Sequence record: OQ973471.1
DNA length: 64,000 nucleotides
DNA from: Escherichia phage AV101
Reading direction: 5' to 3' (one strand)
The notes below the pieces were generated by a model that was not told the origin of the DNA, made no database searches, and saw only the letters and a program-made list of their open reading frames with translations. The stretch's first letter is position 1; each line of letters begins with the position of its first letter. Shown piece after piece: positions 16,172 to 62,644 of this stretch. A program made the translations under genes and the position numbers.

Positions 16172-16203
16172 GATGTGCTCCTGGTTTACATTCAGATCAT
16201 AGA

Positions 16204-16231
16204 ATTATACCCTATGACCTGCTTTATTGAA
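16204..16231 (-). promoter_or_regulatory. putative sigma70-type promoter TTCAAT-16-TATAAT
   Basis: Minus-strand hexamers with 16-nt spacer upstream of gene starting at 16171. Confidence 0.4.
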
Positions 16232-22408: not shown

Positions 22409-22443
22409 AAACTGCTCCGATAAACAAAAGGAGCTGCTATTAT

Positions 22444-22474
22444 AGCAACCCCTTCATCTATTGAACAGTTTCTG
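22444..22474 (-). promoter_or_regulatory. putative early promoter (TTCAAT ... TGCTATAAT) overlapping 13-bp palindrome TGCTATTATAGCA
   Basis: Minus-strand extended -10 TGCTATAAT; perfect palindrome 22444-22456; sits before the modification operon. Confidence 0.4.
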
Positions 22475-26349: not shown

Positions 26350-27360
26350 TCAGTTAGACTTGAGATACTGCTCGAATTCGTCAATGGAAGCCGTGTTTCT
26401 GGCATTCGGTTGAGCCTGAGCCTGAGACGGCGCGGCCTGTTGCTGTTTCAGGCTATCTTGAGCAGTTGGCTGATGCGTAGTCTGGGTGCTAGGAGCATGA
26501 GCCATCGTGGCTGCACCACCTTCAACCAGAGGCTGGTCATCAGGGATTGCCAGAACTTTGCGCAGGCGCTTTTCCAGGGAGTCGTAGTCTTTGAAGTTAG
26601 CCGGATTGAAGAATTCAAACAGGCTGTGCTCGCGAGACCAGACGTCTTCCATATACGCTTCGTCATCACTCAGCGGGGCAGGGTTCTCCCACACCACCTT
26701 ACTGAAGTTTGCCACCAGACCTTCCCAGTTCCCAAACTTCTTCTGCTCGCCAAAGAGCTTCAGGTTCAGGTTGGCACCTTCCCACAGATCGAACGGATCG
26801 AATTTAGGGTCGGTTGGGAACTTAGGATTCTGCGCCTGATCCAGGATTTTCTTGATGGCGTTACCAAATTCCAGCAGGAAGACCTTGCCGTTGTTTTCCG
26901 GTACGTTGACATCTTTGATCACCAGAATGTTAGCGTAGTATTTGGTGTCGGGTAGACGTTTCTTCAGGATGTCCTTCAGCTTTTCGTCGTTCGTTTCTTT
27001 CTGCTGCGCCCACAGCGGACGGTCATGGTCGCGCACCGGATCGTCGTTACCGAACGTCTGAGGTGAGTTCTCAATATACCAACCACCAGGTCCCTGGAAC
27101 TGATGCTTCATGATCATGGCACAAGGGGTAAGGATCTGATCTTTATCGATCGTTCCTTCTTCCTGTGCCTTGAGGTCTACCAGCGGGACTGGCAGGAAGC
27201 GGATGATGTTCTCAGAGATACCATCTTTGTTCCAAGTCCATTTCCAGATGCGAGGATCCTTCTGGAAACCGGACTTCTGGCCTTGCTGTGCAAGACGAGC
27301 CTGCATTGCTTCAGTTTGCTGGCCGCGAGACGCTTTCAGACGATCGAATAAATTACCCAT
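26350..27360 (-). CDS. single-stranded DNA-binding protein gp32
   Basis: IRFLP, YYANILVIKD, PENNGKVF, WEGANLNLK match T4 gp32 core; acidic/Gln-rich C-terminal tail. Confidence 0.85.
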   Translation of the reverse strand: MGNLFDRLKASRGQQTEAMQARLAQQGQKSGFQKDPRIWKWTWNKDGISENIIRFLPVPLVDLKAQEEGTIDKDQILTPCAMIMKHQFQGPGGWYIENSPQTFGNDDPVRDHDRPLWAQQKETNDEKLKDILKKRLPDTKYYANILVIKDVNVPENNGKVFLLEFGNAIKKILDQAQNPKFPTDPKFDPFDLWEGANLNLKLFGEQKKFGNWEGLVANFSKVVWENPAPLSDDEAYMEDVWSREHSLFEFFNPANFKDYDSLEKRLRKVLAIPDDQPLVEGGAATMAHAPSTQTTHQPTAQDSLKQQQAAPSQAQAQPNARNTASIDEFEQYLKSN

Positions 27361-27428
27361 TTCTTAATTTCCTCTGTTTCCGCCCCTCAGGGCTATTCTG
27401 TTACATGTATTTTCAGTTTGCTACAAAG

Positions 27429-27446
27429 CGGGGTAATTATACCCCG
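27429..27446 (-). repeat. third copy of CGGGGTAAT(T/C)ATACCCCG hairpin in gp32 leader region
   Basis: CGGGGTA-ATTA-TACCCCG between upstream gene and gp32. Confidence 0.5.
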
Positions 27447-27459
27447 ATCTTACATTGAA

Positions 27460-27699
27460 TTAACCTTTAAGCACTTGATTTGCTGGGTCAATTTCAATAA
27501 TGTCGAACACGTCCGAAAACGTCTTCTTGCCTTCGTCGTGCGTGTGATACTCAACGACATATGAGCGACCATCAGGGGTAACGTAACGAATACGATCCGT
27601 CTGGTCGGCATTCTCGTTCAGACTACCCACACGCCAGCGCATTGCGCCAGGAAGAAACTCGGCAGCTTTCATTGCGCTGTAAATTGATTCTTTGCTCAT
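27460..27699 (-). CDS. hypothetical protein
   Basis: 79 aa. Confidence 0.4.
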   Translation of the reverse strand: MSKESIYSAMKAAEFLPGAMRWRVGSLNENADQTDRIRYVTPDGRSYVVEYHTHDEGKKTFSDVFDIIEIDPANQVLKG

Positions 27700-33907: not shown

Positions 33908-34368
33908 CTACTCCGCCAGGGTGATCACAACCATATTTAAGACTGTGTCGATAGCTCGGCCTGTTTCCTCTTCATGGAGGGTTTCGGCGCGGAGGTGCAC
34001 GTCGGTGATGAAATTGTCGATGTGCATTGAAGTCAGATACGGGCGGTGTTGACTGACCGGGCGGTTGACCAGAACATAATTGCGCAATGTGTTGAAGTCC
34101 TGATGAGAGCACCCCGTTGTATCGATACGAAGGAAGCGTTCGTTGTGGCTTGTCTTCAACTCAGTCACCTTGCCGAGGTAGGCCAGAGGTCCATTGCGAC
34201 CGATACGGAACATGACATCAACAACAGACTTGAAGATTTCGCGTTCAATCAGTGCGGTGGGTGACCAGCAGATCTCTTCTTTGTCGTCGGCGTACAGGGT
34301 GTCGATCACCAGAGGAAGTTGAATGTAACCGAAGTTGTGCAGTGGGTTGGTGAGTACTTTGTTTGTCA
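33908..34368 (-). CDS. hypothetical protein
   Basis: Start refined to ATG 34368 preceded by conserved AGGAACTATATC cassette. Confidence 0.4.
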
Positions 34369-34467
34369 TGATATAGTTCCTGCTTTCAATTTGTGGCGAA
34401 TGCCAATGAATTACTGGGAAGTATAGGGGAGGGCGTTTCAAAAGTAAAGCCCCTCATTGAGGGGCTT
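34369..34467 (-). repeat. conserved intergenic cassette copy: GC hairpin + CCCTATACTTC + TTGAAAGCAGGAACTATATC-ATG
   Basis: Near-identical in 3' part to copy at 47284-47378. Confidence 0.6.
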
Positions 34468-38165: not shown

Positions 38166-38250
38166 AGCGATCCTCGGTTTGTGTTATAAGCAGGTTTTAT
38201 TATACGCCGCCCTCGTAGATTGAAGGCGGCGGGGAGTGTTGGTGAGTTAC

Positions 38251-43423: not shown

Positions 43424-43516
43424 GATGTTGTCCTCAGAAAAAGAAATCCCCCTGTATTTAGGGGGATCCAGTTACAGACCAAGTTCTTTCGTCGTGGCGT
43501 CGTCTAGTGCAACCTC

Positions 43517-46947: not shown

Positions 46948-47283
46948 TTATTTTTGAACTTGGGCTACAGACATCGCCCAGAGCGGGAGGGTGTGGGGGT
47001 CCAGGGCTTCCAGTAGATATTCGACGCGCTCTGACATGATACCTTCAGGGAAGTTTACTTCTTCTGGTTCGTTGTTGGCCGTCCAACCCAAGGTCAGTCC
47101 TTCAGCGTGATGGATGATATAAACGAAGTCGCCCGATTCGTAGTCCTTTTCCATCAGGTCGAAGAAATGGAAGATTTCTTCGTCGGAGAAGTAGTAGATG
47201 CGAGGTACAGAGCCGTCAGCAAAGTGCTCAGCACCCTGGAAGGCAAACATGTCATCGGCAGTGAAGTTCTTGAGTTGTGTCAT
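46948..47283 (-). CDS. hypothetical acidic protein
   Basis: Start ATG 47283 preceded by AGGAACTATATC cassette. Confidence 0.4.
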   Translation of the reverse strand: MTQLKNFTADDMFAFQGAEHFADGSVPRIYYFSDEEIFHFFDLMEKDYESGDFVYIIHHAEGLTLGWTANNEPEEVNFPEGIMSERVEYLLEALDPHTLPLWAMSVAQVQK

Positions 47284-47378
47284 GATATAGTTCCTGCTTT
47301 TCAAGTTGGTGTCGTACTGCTTATGGAATGAAGTATAGGGAAGGATATTGAAGAAGTAAAGGGGCGTTTGCCCCTTTT
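47284..47378 (-). repeat. conserved intergenic cassette copy
   Basis: Shares CCCTATACTTC and TTGAAAAGCAGGAACTATATC-ATG with copy at 34369. Confidence 0.6.
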
Positions 47379-57768: not shown

Positions 57769-58431
57769 TTACACCTCCACCGCGTGAGACTTCAGGAGTT
57801 CATCAATCTCTTTCTGTCCCATGTATGAGAACGGGGTGCGCTGGTAGAACGCCCAGAGTACTAACTGGACAACAGCACGGGAACGGGTTTCGGCCGTCAT
57901 CACCAGGCCACTGAAATGAGGAGACTCAGCTGTCCATTGTATCTCTTCGCCCAGGTCTTGATTACAGGTCACCGAGATGCGGAACTTGTTGCACAGATTG
58001 TCGACTTCTTTGTACGCATCGGTAGACACACGAAGTTGTTCCGCATGCACCCACGGAGTTGTGATGATTCTTTCACCCATCACTTTATCAGAGATAAACC
58101 AATCAATACATTCGGTAAACTCACTAAAATGGTCGATACGATAAATGCAGTCTCCCCCTTCCATAGAACGCATGGCATGATAGCGAGCGTCAATTTCGTT
58201 GTTATGCATAGCGTTGAAGTCGATGAACACGCGACGCGCCAGCACAACATCTTCTGGTTGAAGTGCCAGGAAATCGTTCAGGCGGCTATAATGGAGGACA
58301 TTGGAACCGTCGTGGCCACGTGTGCAATATGCGTAATGGCTACCGATACGGGCGTGGGCAATATAAGACAACGGGGCGAAGAATAATCCGTCAGGATCAG
58401 GACCGACGATAATAGAATAAAGTTTTTCCAT
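57769..58431 (-). CDS. hypothetical protein
   Basis: Start ATG 58431 preceded by GAGACTATATC cassette. Confidence 0.4.
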   Translation of the reverse strand: MEKLYSIIVGPDPDGLFFAPLSYIAHARIGSHYAYCTRGHDGSNVLHYSRLNDFLALQPEDVVLARRVFIDFNAMHNNEIDARYHAMRSMEGGDCIYRIDHFSEFTECIDWFISDKVMGERIITTPWVHAEQLRVSTDAYKEVDNLCNKFRISVTCNQDLGEEIQWTAESPHFSGLVMTAETRSRAVVQLVLWAFYQRTPFSYMGQKEIDELLKSHAVEV

Positions 58432-58487
58432 GATATAGTCTCTCAAATGAAAGGGTAGCTTTATGATAAGCCGCCCGAGGTTATTGA

Positions 58488-59354
58488 TTATTGGAAATCG
58501 CCAACATACATGTTCAGCTTGTCATCCCAATTCAGAACAACACGGATCGTTCCGGTATCTTCTGGGAAGGTCAGTTTGTCACACATGGCGCGATTAACAT
58601 AAGTCCCGCTCTGGTTGACGTTGTAGTCCTTGCCTTGCATGATACCAAAACGCTTGAAGTCGCGAGTGACCATCATGTTCAACGTGGTCCACGGAATGAT
58701 GTCACGCAAGGCTTTGCACAGGATGATCTTGCCATCCGACCTGAACGACACAAACAGCTCGTTGGCGACACGACGGCGAGTAGGCGGTTCAAGTTCACGC
58801 AGGGAAATGAATTGTGAATTCTTTACCTTTTCTGCCAGCGCCTGTACTTCTGCTGGATCCGGCTTGAACGGCTCCACTGAAGAGTCAGACTTCATCACAA
58901 CGTCACCCTTGCGCTTCTCAACCAATTGCTCCACAGCCTTTTGACTCACGGGAGGGAGGTATTTGGACTTAGGAACAACCGCTGGCTTGATGACAGGGCT
59001 TGCATCTGGTTTCGCCTTTGGAGTACTCCGTGCCGCACGCAGCTTTTCCTGGGCTTGTAGAATGCGCTCTTGACGAGAAAGCGGAGCCTTTGGGGTGATC
59101 TTCGTACTGAAGTCAGAAACGCCGACCCAGTCACCCTGGTCATTACGCTTGGCTACCAGAGTCAGTTTGTGGATGATACCCTGAAGTTTGCTCTCACGCA
59201 AGTTGTCAGCATACCAGAACTTCGCGCCCATCTCGAACTTCTCGGCGAAGATCACGCGAGCGTCTTCGTGTACCAACATAACTTTGGCTGCGTTGGGGGC
59301 AAAAGCCTTATTCTTTTCGATAATCGCCGCAGCGATTGTTTTGGTCAGGAGCAT
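58488..59354 (-). CDS. hypothetical protein with Lys/Pro-rich central linker
   Basis: ATG 59354 after GAAGGAA RBS. Confidence 0.4.
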   Translation of the reverse strand: MLLTKTIAAAIIEKNKAFAPNAAKVMLVHEDARVIFAEKFEMGAKFWYADNLRESKLQGIIHKLTLVAKRNDQGDWVGVSDFSTKITPKAPLSRQERILQAQEKLRAARSTPKAKPDASPVIKPAVVPKSKYLPPVSQKAVEQLVEKRKGDVVMKSDSSVEPFKPDPAEVQALAEKVKNSQFISLRELEPPTRRRVANELFVSFRSDGKIILCKALRDIIPWTTLNMMVTRDFKRFGIMQGKDYNVNQSGTYVNRAMCDKLTFPEDTGTIRVVLNWDDKLNMYVGDFQ

Positions 59355-61159: not shown

Positions 61160-61415
61160 TCAGGATACGAGCGGTGTCGAAAGTTTCCCCGCCCGTGTTC
61201 AGCAGCTTAGTCAGATCGTCAAGATATCGAACCGTGCCAAGATCAGATGACCGCGATATAAACTCCAGCATACCATACAACGCTGTTTGGAATCGGCTGT
61301 TATCGATATCGTTCTTTATTACCATCAGGCGCAAGATGTTCTCTGACTGAGTATGGCCAACACACGCCTTGTCTCTGATCATCTCCTTGATAGAACTTCT
61401 CTCTGATGGTGTCAT
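61128..61415 (-). CDS. hypothetical protein
   Basis: ATGA coupling with upstream gene. Confidence 0.4.
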   Translation of the reverse strand: MTPSERSSIKEMIRDKACVGHTQSENILRLMVIKNDIDNSRFQTALYGMLEFISRSSDLGTVRYLDDLTKLLNTGGETFDTARILIDGGPEEDEV

Positions 61416-61785
61416 AACGTACCCCCGACAGAGATCAAGAACTCTTCTTGCATGGTCTTGACCGGGTGGTGGTTGCGGGTTTCGATCATGAAGCCCCAGC
61501 CGCCGTCGGCGACGTTGCCAAAGGTCTTGACGCCAAAGGACTTCGTCCCGTTGGAGCAGGAATAGATGTCCAGGACGTATGGGCTACCCTGATTGTCGAT
61601 CCCACGATTCACGTCGTCTGATACGCAGCGCTCAATCATCTTCCCGTTCTTATACAGAACGAGGTCTTGGCCATACGCCTTGAAAGCATAAACACCGTTG
61701 GTAGACACTCCGGTGATGACAGGAGGGGCGGAAACAGCAGCAAAGGAAGCGCCTAGCAGGGCAACAGCGAGGATTAACTTTTTCA
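61412..61785 (-). CDS. secreted protein
   Basis: Start ATG about 61785; signal peptide MKKLILAVALLGASFAAVSA; two Cys pairs. Confidence 0.45.
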
Positions 61786-61832
61786 TGATATAGTCTCTTG
61801 GTTTCAAATGGGCGGGGTAATCATACCCCGCC
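61786..61832 (-). repeat. cassette variant with GGCGGGGTA-ATCA-TACCCCGCC hairpin + CATTTGAAA + GAGACTATATC-ATG
   Basis: Hairpin and flanks repeated at 62346-62392. Confidence 0.6.
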
Positions 61833-61838
61833 GTGGGT

Positions 61839-62345
61839 TTATAGAGTAACAAGTGATACGGTAAAAACCATCGTCCCGTCTGTTGCCATTTTTCTTGAAA
61901 CTGGTATGACGCGAGGCTGGCAGAATATCCATTCTTTCTCCATGGACGCCAAGTCCAGCATATCCATTTCTGATTCATCGCCTTTGTTCACAAATTTTTC
62001 TAGAGAACCATAGACATTAAGCCCCTCCGGGAGTCTGTTTCGATGTTTGTAACAAATGCGGGCAACAGCTTTGGTTCCGTACGATTTAGAAAATTTTTTG
62101 GCCACATGCTTCAGTTCACTGAAGCTAAGACAAGAGTCCCATGTCTGGAACATGTCGCCTCGTTCAAACATTATCTCTAAACGCGCAACGTCCTCTTTAG
62201 GCAACCCACGATAAAGTGTGGTCGTCTGTGGTTCGCGCAATTCTTGCACCAGATCGCGGACGGCAGGGGAAACAGTACCGGGGCGCATGATGTGGGACTT
62301 ATCATGGACGAGGTAAAATAAATCTTGAATTTGTTGATCGGTCAT
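61839..62345 (-). CDS. candidate mono-ADP-ribosyltransferase (R-S-E type), tentative
   Basis: Spaced TLYRG (Arg), SCLSFS (S-x-S) and DESEMD (E-x-E) in order and spacing reminiscent of T4 Alt/Mod-type ARTs. Confidence 0.3.
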   Translation of the reverse strand: MTDQQIQDLFYLVHDKSHIMRPGTVSPAVRDLVQELREPQTTTLYRGLPKEDVARLEIMFERGDMFQTWDSCLSFSELKHVAKKFSKSYGTKAVARICYKHRNRLPEGLNVYGSLEKFVNKGDESEMDMLDLASMEKEWIFCQPRVIPVSRKMATDGTMVFTVSLVTL

Positions 62346-62392
62346 GGTATAGTTCCTGCATTTCAAATAGACGGGGTAATCATACCCCGCCC
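62346..62392 (-). repeat. cassette variant copy
   Basis: GACGGGGTAATCATACCCCGCC hairpin + TATTTGAAATGCAGGAACTATACC-ATG. Confidence 0.6.
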
Positions 62393-62404
62393 AAAGTTAT
62401 AGAA

Positions 62405-62644
62405 TTAACTGATGTGCTTCAGAAGAGCGAAGAGGATCGCGGCCTTGGCCTTTACCTTTCCCACGATGCCTGTCTCGACATCAACTTCTTCAGCAACCCA
62501 CTCTTTTCCCTTCTTGCTGATGATAACGTCACGGCGCTGTGCGTAGACTTCTTTGGTCGCATACACACGGCGGAACCCTTTAGCGCGGAGCAATCCCCAA
62601 TTGCGATCAATTTCTACTGAGGTTTCTACCATTTTGTTCTTCAT
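62405..62644 (-). CDS. hypothetical protein
   Basis: 79 aa. Confidence 0.4.
   Translation of the reverse strand: MKNKMVETSVEIDRNWGLLRAKGFRRVYATKEVYAQRRDVIISKKGKEWVAEEVDVETGIVGKVKAKAAILFALLKHIS

Follow-up and report, generated by a model that had tools for sequence, protein, structure and literature searches.

Escherichia phage AV101 (sequence record OQ973471.1) carries three copies of a short GC-rich hairpin in a 64,000-nucleotide stretch of its DNA, referred to here as the window, whose numbering is used for all positions. The window derives from a Vi1-like phage of the Ackermannviridae, subfamily Aglimvirinae. The copies are located at 61813-61830 (site 1), 62372-62389 (site 2) and 27429-27446 (site 3), the last of these in front of the gene for the single-stranded DNA-binding protein gp32. 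The favored explanation, to which a probability of roughly 0.58 is given, is that the copies are composite cassette junctions in intergenic DNA, analogues of the promoter-early stem-loops (PeSLs) known from the T4-type coliphages RB49 and phi1. The repeat is real and is conserved across the Ackermannviridae. Its stem is maintained as a structure of the sense-strand RNA. For a hexamer at the apex of the stem and an A/T-rich box upstream of it, it is the sequence that is maintained, with a single orientation and a preferred distance between the two. From this conservation, spacing and orientation, we infer promoter and attenuator functions for the element.

The 18-mer CGGGGTAAT[CT]ATACCCCG occurs exactly three times in the window, with no further copies found when up to three mismatches are allowed. 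The number expected by chance is 0.03 (100 dinucleotide shuffles), and none of the 100 shuffles gave three copies. The preliminary description of this DNA had reported the same hairpin at three positions, each between a stop codon and the next minus-strand start, and both statements are borne out; its intervals of 61811-61832 and 62371-62392 for the first two copies take in the outer base pairs. The open reading frame maps place the genes flanking all three sites on the minus strand. Site 1 is found between a stop codon at 61839-61841 and an ATG at 61784-61786, site 2 between a stop codon at 62405-62407 and an ATG at 62343-62345, and site 3 between a stop codon at 27460-27462 and the gp32 ATG at 27358-27360. 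Folding of the sense-strand RNA gives stems of 9 bp at site 1, 10-11 bp with G-U pairs at site 2 and 7 bp at site 3, each with a loop of 4 nt. Hairpin 1 (61811-61832, minus strand) reads GGCGGGGTA-UGAU-UACCCCGCC in the sense direction, with a minimum free energy (MFE) of -20.5 over its 71-nt region (z = -4.1). Hairpin 2 (62369-62392, minus strand) consists of the core at 62372-62389 and three outer pairs that include G-U. Hairpin 3 (27429-27446, minus strand) has the loop UAAU. No Rfam covariance model matches at the gathering threshold anywhere in the window.

As the flanking genes are on the minus strand, the functional reading of the 18-mer is its reverse complement, CGGGGTAT(G/A)ATTACCCCG. 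This can be written as CGGGGTA-T(G/A)AT-TACCCCG, with the apex of the stem formed by a hexamer that resembles a -10 element: TATGAT at site 1 (61820-61825) and site 2 (62379-62384), and a perfect TATAAT at site 3 (27436-27441), all on the minus strand. Upstream of the hexamer there is a box on the same strand. It reads TTCAAT at 12 nt at site 3 (27454-27459), directly after the stop codon of the upstream gene, and TTCTAT(AA) at 14 nt at site 2 (62399-62404). At site 1 it takes the variant form CTCTAT at 15 nt (61841-61846), the weakest match to TTCAAT, and overlaps the stop codon of a 168-amino acid gene. This gene (61839-62345, minus strand) is flanked by hairpins 1 and 2 and is optional, and is referred to below as the cassette gene. 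The sequence shared by the sites amounts to an element of approximately 40 nt, GTTAATTCwAT...CGGGGTATrATTACCCCG.

Downstream of the stems there is a short leader with an AGGA or GAGA ribosome-binding site. At sites 1 and 2, the hairpin is followed in the sense direction by (C/T)ATTTGAAA and then by AAGAGACTATATCATG or CAGGAACTATACCATG, as had been reported earlier together with their common type of ribosome-binding site. These features are part of a 50-nt direct repeat (repeat family D4; 84% identity, copies 559 bp apart) that extends from the hairpin up to the start codon. The repeat families and a leader census delimit the shared leader on the minus strand as CCATTTGAAACCAAGAGACTATATC with the ATG of a 124-amino acid gene (61412-61786) at site 1 (61784-61810; families D2, D4 and D9), and as TATTTGAAATGCAGGAACTATACC with the ATG of the cassette gene at site 2 (62343-62368). 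A leader of the form TTGAAA(N2-3)AGGAACTATATCATG is nearly identical before at least five unrelated genes of the window (34366-34402, 47280-47316, 58424-58443, 61783-61810 and 62342-62368) and before 12 genes in the related phage ZQ1, independent of the type of promoter upstream.

The proposed junction reads, in sense-strand order, as a stop codon, an A/T-rich TTCAAT-type box, a G-rich 5′ arm, the TAnnnT hexamer at the apex, a C-rich 3′ arm and a short leader with AGGA or GAGA, the start codon following 26-70 nt later. In transcripts that read through from the upstream gene, the RNA hairpin would attenuate transcription or protect the 3′ end. The hairpins at the three sites would be only weak terminators, because their U-tract is poor. 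The hexamer would serve the downstream gene as the -10 of a pre-replicative promoter. The proposed start of transcription is approximately 7 nt past the hexamer, within or just past the 3′ arm, so that the new mRNA would be free of the hairpin. The 50-60 bp or so of shared sequence may further provide the phage recombination system with a substrate for the insertion, deletion and exchange of the flanked genes. The same stem would be present at three sites because one inserted cassette has site 1 at one end and site 2 at the other, and site 3 is a paralogous copy.

The comparative evidence begins with the closest complete genome, that of Escherichia phage vB_EcoM-ZQ1 (ZQ1; 97.6% identity to the window), which was used whole as a reference. 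A 3-kb region around the sites is matched by 233 records. A 62-nt query from site 2 matches 265 phage records by blastn, essentially all of them from the Ackermannviridae; at E-values up to 1, no other phage family is found besides one spurious 25-nt match. Retrieval with the exact 18-mer is biased towards conservation, and retrieval was repeated through neighboring proteins. Upstream of hairpin 2, a conserved 79-amino acid gene (PHROG 804; 62405-62644, minus strand; 271 phage records) anchors the variable locus. The alignment of this site holds 17 genomes, made up of 14 from IMG/VR that were found via the 79-amino acid gene, and hence without bias for the hairpin, along with the window, CECAV_050 and pertopsoe.

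Within this alignment, the core GGGGTATGATTACCCC is nearly invariant, and variation is found in the spacer next to it and at synonymous sites of the neighboring gene. The box sequence TTCTATA is invariant, as is the TATGAT hexamer, which is in the sense orientation in all 17 genomes. The N14 distance between the two is the modal spacing of the wider class of sites described below. The proportion of paired cells in the stem is 95.6%, compared with 43-65% in controls in which the partners were slid by 1-3 columns. The changes that have occurred comprise one compensatory exchange of G-C for A-U, twelve changes on one side only, each of which leaves a G-U or U-G pair, and one unpaired cell. Tolerance of G-U pairs is confined to the sense strand, a sign that selection acts on the RNA. 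In the orthologues from Taipeivirus, the box is ATCAATAA or ATCAATAT and the hairpin has a U-G pair, with an apex of TAAAAT in cp21 and TATGAT in KWBSE43-6. Every hexamer variant seen (TATGAT, TATAAT, TAAAAT and TATCAT) keeps the form TAnnnT.

The pattern of changes also bears on the improbable alternative that the palindrome CGGGGTA-N4-TACCCCG is a DNA operator, at which a dimeric protein of the phage or host switches the three genes, for example in the shut-off of pre-replicative promoters. The 7-bp arms, with centers 11 bp apart, would suit a dimer. They are identical at the three sites, and the 16-nt core of site 2 is almost invariant across genera next to a variable spacer. An unrelated phage contig of 58% GC (L020) has the palindrome twice in tandem together with variants, in an operator-like arrangement, and the authors of the PeSL study also speculated on a protein that binds GGGG...CCCC (PMC2839356). 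Nonetheless, the changes in the arms are of the G-U type, which keeps the RNA pairing and breaks the symmetry of the DNA. The Taipeivirus orthologues have TTGCCCC instead of TTACCCC, the gp32 site of Kuttervirus is devoid of the palindrome, and many members of the wider class have the same architecture with entirely different stems. No candidate for the binding protein was identified. As a separate observation, the palindrome GGGGTATAATTACCCC is carried by unrelated viral contigs of 17-44 kb and 58% GC (L007, L008, L019 and L020). In L020 (527-570 and ~1266, minus strand), where it occurs twice in tandem with the variants GGGGTTTATTTACCCC and GGGGTAAATTACCCC nearby, it looks like a set of repressor operators.

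At the gp32 site, the stem and the hexamer have behaved differently. The alignment covers 19 loci in which the identity of gp32 ranges from 99% down to 54%. The sequence GTATAA is invariant at all 19 loci and in the sense orientation throughout, and the full TATAAT is present at 17, with gp32 identities down to 70%; the two most distant loci (54-55%) read TATAAATA. Upstream, TCAAT is found at a distance of 11-14 nt in three lineages with a variable spacer, and the fourth (L046/47) has TTAAT instead. The Aglimvirinae have the stem, and two further lineages form it from other sequences (GCGGGGGTA/TACTCCCGC and GCGGGTAT/ATATCCGC). In Kuttervirus it is degenerate (CGCAGTA/TACACCG), while TATAAT is kept.

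Site 1 has followed the opposite course. The stem GGCGGGG/CCCCGCC persists in its relatives, and it is the loop that changes. With the arms unchanged, the loop is exactly inverted on the same strand, from TGAT to ATCA, in ZQ1 (106420-106437; L027), L056 (~2315) and L062. The hexamer reads TAATCA in the first two, and the inverted loop has also decayed in L062. The change is a micro-inversion mediated by the hairpin, and the sense-strand TATGAT is destroyed by it. In L064 the loop is changed to TATCTTTG and the hexamer to TATCTT, and L060 has no element at site 1. A stem that is lost where the hexamer and box are kept, and a hexamer that is lost where the stem is kept, is the behavior expected of two overlapping functions. 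Inversion does occur at site 1 but the orientation is fixed at site 2 and at gp32, which means that the apex sequence matters in a strand-specific manner, as a -10 would.

The three hairpins belong to a wider class of sites. Throughout the complete genome of ZQ1, the distance from TTCAAT to TAnnnT, the hexamer being required to match TATAAT at five or more of its six positions, peaks sharply at N14, with 9 sites against 0.35 expected (Poisson P = 1.5e-10). When the box is relaxed to [ACT]TCAAT, there are 13 N14 sites against 0.78 expected. Almost all of the N14 sites are intergenic and in the same orientation as the downstream gene. Boxed sites precede nrdA, the kinase/td (thymidylate synthase) operon, the clamp loader, rIIA, gp32, a deoxyribonucleotidase and small open reading frames. 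A first criterion for enclosure of the hexamer by a hairpin, at least five enclosing pairs, did not discriminate between boxed and other hexamers (12/19 vs 372/623), and an energy threshold was used instead. Strong hairpins, defined by an MFE of -11 kcal/mol or lower, enclose 8 of 19 boxed hexamers and 57 of 623 others (Fisher P = 2e-4). The class numbers at least 15 members in ZQ1, and at least four in the window besides the three copies; a strict Watson-Crick census of hairpins misses those members that contain G-U pairs. The stems are unrelated in sequence (e.g., GGGGGA/TCCCCC, ACGGGGC/GCCCCGT, GGTCATAG/CTATGATC and GGGGTTGCTAT/ATAGCAGCTCC), and the T-runs that follow them are good in some members and missing in others. 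The three flagged copies are members of this class that happen to share one stem sequence.

The further members in the window are all on the minus strand. At 58429-58488, a fourth paralogue with a different stem has the box ATCAATAA, the N14 spacing and TATCAT at the apex of a hairpin at 58453-58476 (GGGCGGCUU/AAGCUACCC), followed by TTTCATTTGAGAGACTATATCATG. Its leader is as at sites 1 and 2, and its orthologue in ZQ1 (103075) has a perfect stem. At 22420-22465, TTCAAT-N15-TATAAT has its hexamer at the apex of GGGGUUGCUAU/AUAGCAGCUCC, and TTTTGTTTAT follows as a true terminator-like tail. At 16195-16231, TTCAAT-N16-TATAAT has its hexamer in the loop of GGUCAUAG/CUAUGAUC. Upstream of nrdA (38199-38231), the TTCAAT box lies within the hairpin CGCCGCC/GGCGGCG, and TATAAT is directly adjacent to the hairpin. 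Box and hexamer are invariant across four lineages at the nrdA site, and the stem covaries across genera (CGCCGCC/GGCGGCG, CGTCGCC/GGCGACG, CACCGCC/GGCGGTG and AACCGC/GCGGTT). In L075, L081 and L083, there is an extra gene between the nrdA promoter element and nrdA with its own TCAATAA, hairpin and TATAAT-like element, and this marks another variable cassette site.

The sites of the form TTCAAT(AA)-N12-TAnnnT, a spacing equal to N14 when counted from TTCAAT, may be, with the three hairpins included, pre-replicative or “middle-type” promoters of the Ackermannviridae. This is a tentative proposal, and one regarded as possible without being favored. Host RNA polymerase would act there only with the aid of a phage factor bound at the box near -30, in analogy to MotA/AsiA, and the hairpin would be the stop of one unit and the factor-dependent start of the next. 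The T4 middle promoters have a MotA box near -30 and a sigma-70 -10, and rely on sigma appropriation by MotA and AsiA. The AV101 sites share with them a box that ends approximately 12 bp upstream of TAnnnT, a missing -35, and a position before genes of replication and nucleotide metabolism (gp32, nrdA, the clamp loader, the td operon and rIIA). They differ in the box itself, which is TTCAAT(AA) here and TGCTTtA in T4, and no activator was identified. The Vi1-like phages have been reported to have no MotA or AsiA homologue (PMC3184105), and their founding genome papers list only a handful of sigma-70-like promoters and could identify neither early nor middle control signals (PMC3184105, PMC3121705). 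As TTCAAT(AA)-N12-TAnnnT is distinct from both the TTTACT-N17-TATACT early class and the late class, it may represent an undescribed promoter class. A paper on “Viunalikevirus” is said to mention conserved regulatory sequences, and reportedly may describe a TTCAATAA...TATAAT-type motif, in which case the novelty would be lower. Thymidine hypermodification is known in the Ackermannviridae and may alter promoter recognition.

Several observations weigh against the cassette junction with a promoter at its apex. There is no hexamer similar to TTGACA or TTTACT at 16-18 bp from the -10, and a sigma-70 consensus scan of the two regions did not call the hairpin sites; what comes closest to a -35 is GTTAAT at site 3 (17 bp), with GTTAmT at sites 1 and 2 (19 bp). 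The TTCAAT box, at 12-15 bp from the hexamer, is too close to serve as a normal -35. Site 1 has a degenerate form of the box (CTCTAT, N15), and gp32 departs from the N14 found elsewhere with a spacing of N12. Of the six genomes with an element at site 1, four (ZQ1, L056, L062 and L064) have an inverted or mutated hexamer, and a promoter at this site is thus at best dispensable. The early promoter at 62724-62696 could express the downstream genes through read-through alone. The near-invariance of both arms of site 2 across genera also fits recognition by a sequence-specific protein. The three hairpins have a terminator score of -17 to -25, whereas clear terminators in the window score +6 to +14, in a re-implemented d'Aubenton-Carafa-style score that is of comparative value only. 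Lastly, literature searches for transcriptomes or promoter maps of the Ackermannviridae found none.

Other types of site were considered for the hairpins. A late promoter would be expected to resemble CTAAATA(C/T)C. The likeness is partial for TATAATTAC and poor for TATGATTAC, and no structural gene lies downstream; this reading is rejected for sites 1 and 2 and is unlikely for gp32, although the most distant lineage reads TATAAATA there. A hairpin promoter of the N4 type is rejected, as there is no virion RNA polymerase in the Ackermannviridae, and an RNase III site is rejected, as the stems are far below the length of approximately 20 bp.

The terminator score returns to the question of what the hairpin does in RNA. 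The tails after the three stems are CAUUUGAA, UAUUUGAA and CUUUGUAG, with 3-4 U in 8 nt, and the hairpins were not called by a terminator consensus scan that required at least 5 T in 8. Clear terminators were identified by the same scans at 26344-26325 and 63126-63109. The hairpins share with intrinsic terminators a GC-rich stem of 7-11 bp, a 4-nt loop and a position directly after the stop codon. They differ from them in the poor U-tract, the negative score and the conserved sequence and orientation of the loop. In conflict with the low score, the record of the Taipeivirus phage KWBSE43-6 (MK373783) annotates the orthologous hairpin as a putative terminator (ARNOLD). A terminator or attenuator role of the hairpins is plausible.

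It is conceivable, though rather unlikely, that the hairpins are intercistronic RNA structures and nothing else: terminators or attenuators, stabilizers of 3′ ends, or guides for processing of the RNase E type at the AU-rich (C/U)AUUUGAAA, with the hexamer in the loop being incidental. The retention of the sense stem through wobble-compatible and compensatory changes is what such a function would produce, as is the persistence of the stem at site 1 despite a flipped or mutated loop. The ARNOLD annotation in KWBSE43-6 points the same way, as do the class members with genuine T-runs (the hairpin at 22430-22452 has d = +14). Transcripts to be terminated or processed could be supplied from the early promoter at 62724-62696, and RNase E is known to process the T4 gene 32 mRNA ahead of the gene. 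However, an RNA function alone leaves the invariant TATAAT and the TCAAT box unexplained at gp32 where the stem has decayed, along with the fixed orientation of the loop at sites 2 and 3 and the sharp TTCAAT-N14-TAnnnT spacing (P = 1.5e-10). The U-tracts are poor (d = -17 to -25), and the sequence after the stems does not match the RAUUW-type preference of RNase E.

The preliminary description had gone further and suggested that the hairpin in the gp32 leader is linked to translational autoregulation. T4 gp32 is autoregulated through its leader, and one copy of the hairpin does reside upstream of gp32 (26350-27360, minus strand; annotated as Gp32 in ZQ1). A RegA homologue is also annotated in ZQ1, so that the hairpin could be a translational operator for either protein, coordinating gp32 with the other two genes. 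This is exceedingly unlikely. The hairpins end 24-26 nt (sites 1 and 2) or 68 nt (gp32) upstream of the starts, outside the ribosome-binding sites, and the stem at gp32 is lost in Kuttervirus. If TATAAT is the -10, gp32 transcripts that start from there would not contain the flagged hairpin. The target of T4 RegA is an AU-rich stretch at the start codon, and that of gp32 is a pseudoknot together with unstructured RNA, as opposed to a GC hairpin.

There is a second hairpin in the gp32 leader, AAUAGCCC-UGAG-GGGCGGA, at 27382-27393 on the minus strand (flanks ~27378-27398), approximately 20 nt upstream of the Shine–Dalgarno sequence. This structure (AAUAGCCC-N4-GGGCGG), and not the flagged one, has been kept by every Ackermannviridae lineage examined. 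L046/L047, the most distant of them, has two copies, with the covarying stems GCCGA..UCGGC and GCC..GGC. The translational operator of T4 gene 32, composed of a leader pseudoknot and unstructured A/U-rich RNA, has in common with the flagged hairpin a location upstream of a gp32 homologue. The flagged AV101 structure is a simple hairpin, at 68 nt from the ATG and probably upstream of the transcription start, and the hairpin at 27382-27393 is the one at an operator-like position. Its conservation makes the latter a better candidate for the autoregulatory operator of gp32. What stands of the earlier proposal of a shared regulatory hairpin is that the repeat is non-random, conserved and intergenic, is selected as a structure of the sense RNA, and plausibly acts as a terminator or attenuator; the connection to gp32 autoregulation is not upheld. 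That account had passed over the -10-like hexamer in the loop, the TTCAAT-type box, the class members with different stems and the use of the element as a recombination seam.

The evidence for the recombination seam comes from the cassette gene between hairpins 1 and 2. This gene is found in 66 phage records, compared with the 271 for the 79-amino acid gene upstream. In RPN242, Maynard, pertopsoe, L005, L009, L049 and L053, the cassette gene and one element, exactly 559 bp, are absent. Genomes without the cassette have a single chimeric element, with the upstream flank of site 2 and the downstream flank of site 1, and the crossover is inside the hairpin. Depending on the genome, the element is followed by one of at least five different genes, denV among them, and tandem cassettes also occur with copies of the element between them. 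On these comparisons, the element is the crossover point for gene gain and loss.

The cassette protein matches PHROG 832 only at positions 1270-1425 of 1480, the C-terminal part (E = 1e-14), and no Pfam family. Several GenBank records label the gene “RNA polymerase ADP-ribosylase”. The Vi1-like phages are described in the CBA120 paper as having no Alt or ModA. The label looks over-interpreted for a match of this extent.

Recombination could also have left the copies behind as neutral scars, or as hitch-hiking repeats of cassette exchange kept alike by gene conversion. The placement of sites 1 and 2 at either end of a single indel would agree with such an origin, and so would the inversion and decay of the loop at site 1. 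Yet across the 17 genomes, the core of site 2 is more conserved than the adjacent synonymous sites and the flanking spacer, the hexamer and box at gp32 are conserved across four lineages, and the spacing and hairpin statistics hold for the whole class. A purely neutral origin is thus very improbable.

Further control signals were observed in the course of this work. The consensus scans that passed over the three hairpins do identify early promoters of the form TTTACT-N17-TATnAT at 62724-62696 (TTTACT-N17-TATTAT) and at 60463-60435. In a second subclass of composite sites, at 47332-47375 and 34420-34466, a terminator hairpin is fused to the -35 of a T4-early-like promoter (TTTACT-N17-TATACT). 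In these hairpins, and in L002 (3535-3560), the T-run leads straight into the -35 (CCCCTTTACTT). For one of them, phage pertopsoe has no annotation beyond “repeat_region”. The motif before structural genes, in ZQ1 and in the window (minus strand, 43454-43461), is CTAAATA(C/T)C, and not the T4 late consensus TATAAATA; CTAAATA(C/T)C is probably the late promoter of the Ackermannviridae. In the leaders of the tail-fiber and tailspike genes (L025, upstream of 5131 and 1909), a promoter-proximal AAATACCCC pairs with GGGGTATTT at the start codon.

The cassette junction has its closest counterpart in the PeSLs (Arbiol et al. 2010, PMC2839356). In these, an A/T-rich stretch that holds the stop codon is followed by promoter boxes, a GGGG...CCCC stem-loop, a Shine–Dalgarno sequence and ATG, with the stem-loop most commonly between the promoter boxes or overlapping the -10. 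Their promoter and terminator activities were demonstrated with lacZ fusions, and mini-circles were shown experimentally. They mediate the shuffling of ORFans, and in RB49 a crossover is found even within the loop (PMC2839356). The AV101 elements show the same intergenic order, and are likewise present in many copies per genome, mostly before small genes without known function. The conserved sequence reaches the start codon, indel crossovers fall inside the element, and cassettes are flanked on both sides. A stable poly-G...poly-C stem overlaps the promoter boxes in both systems; in AV101, GGGGTA/TACCCC has the hexamer at its apex and the nrdA stem surrounds the box.

There are also differences between the two systems. 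The PeSLs belong to the Straboviridae and have the -35 and -10 consensus of sigma-70, whereas the sites in this member of the Ackermannviridae have a good -10 with a TTCAAT-type box at 12-15 bp. Activity was measured for the PeSLs; the AV101 elements are predicted control sites, and the focal hairpins have weak U-tracts. By blastn, the element is found only in the Ackermannviridae and has no sequence similarity to the PeSLs, which makes it an analogue and not a homologue. It would thus be filed as an element that works like a PeSL in another phage family. The optional cassette gene bracketed by its own transcription signals is also reminiscent of the morons of lambdoid phages. In AV101, however, the flanking signals repeat one another and coincide with the recombination sites, a distinction drawn by the authors of the PeSL study (PMC2839356).

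The Vi1-like phages comprise the genera Kuttervirus, Agtrevirus, Limestonevirus and Taipeivirus, and many of them are used in biocontrol and phage therapy. For this group, the analysis yields a testable set of candidate promoters, defined by box, spacing and -10, and accounts for why many of these candidates resemble terminators. It further indicates that the elements are the seams along which optional genes are exchanged between genera, including denV, the putative ADP-ribosyltransferase-like gene and others. The elements are of use for annotation, for the prediction of mobile genes, and as safe insertion sites and native expression signals in phage engineering. The PeSL concept would be extended from one subgroup of T4-type phages to a separate phage family, and the likeness between the two suggests that combined terminator, promoter and recombination modules have evolved convergently in large lytic phages.

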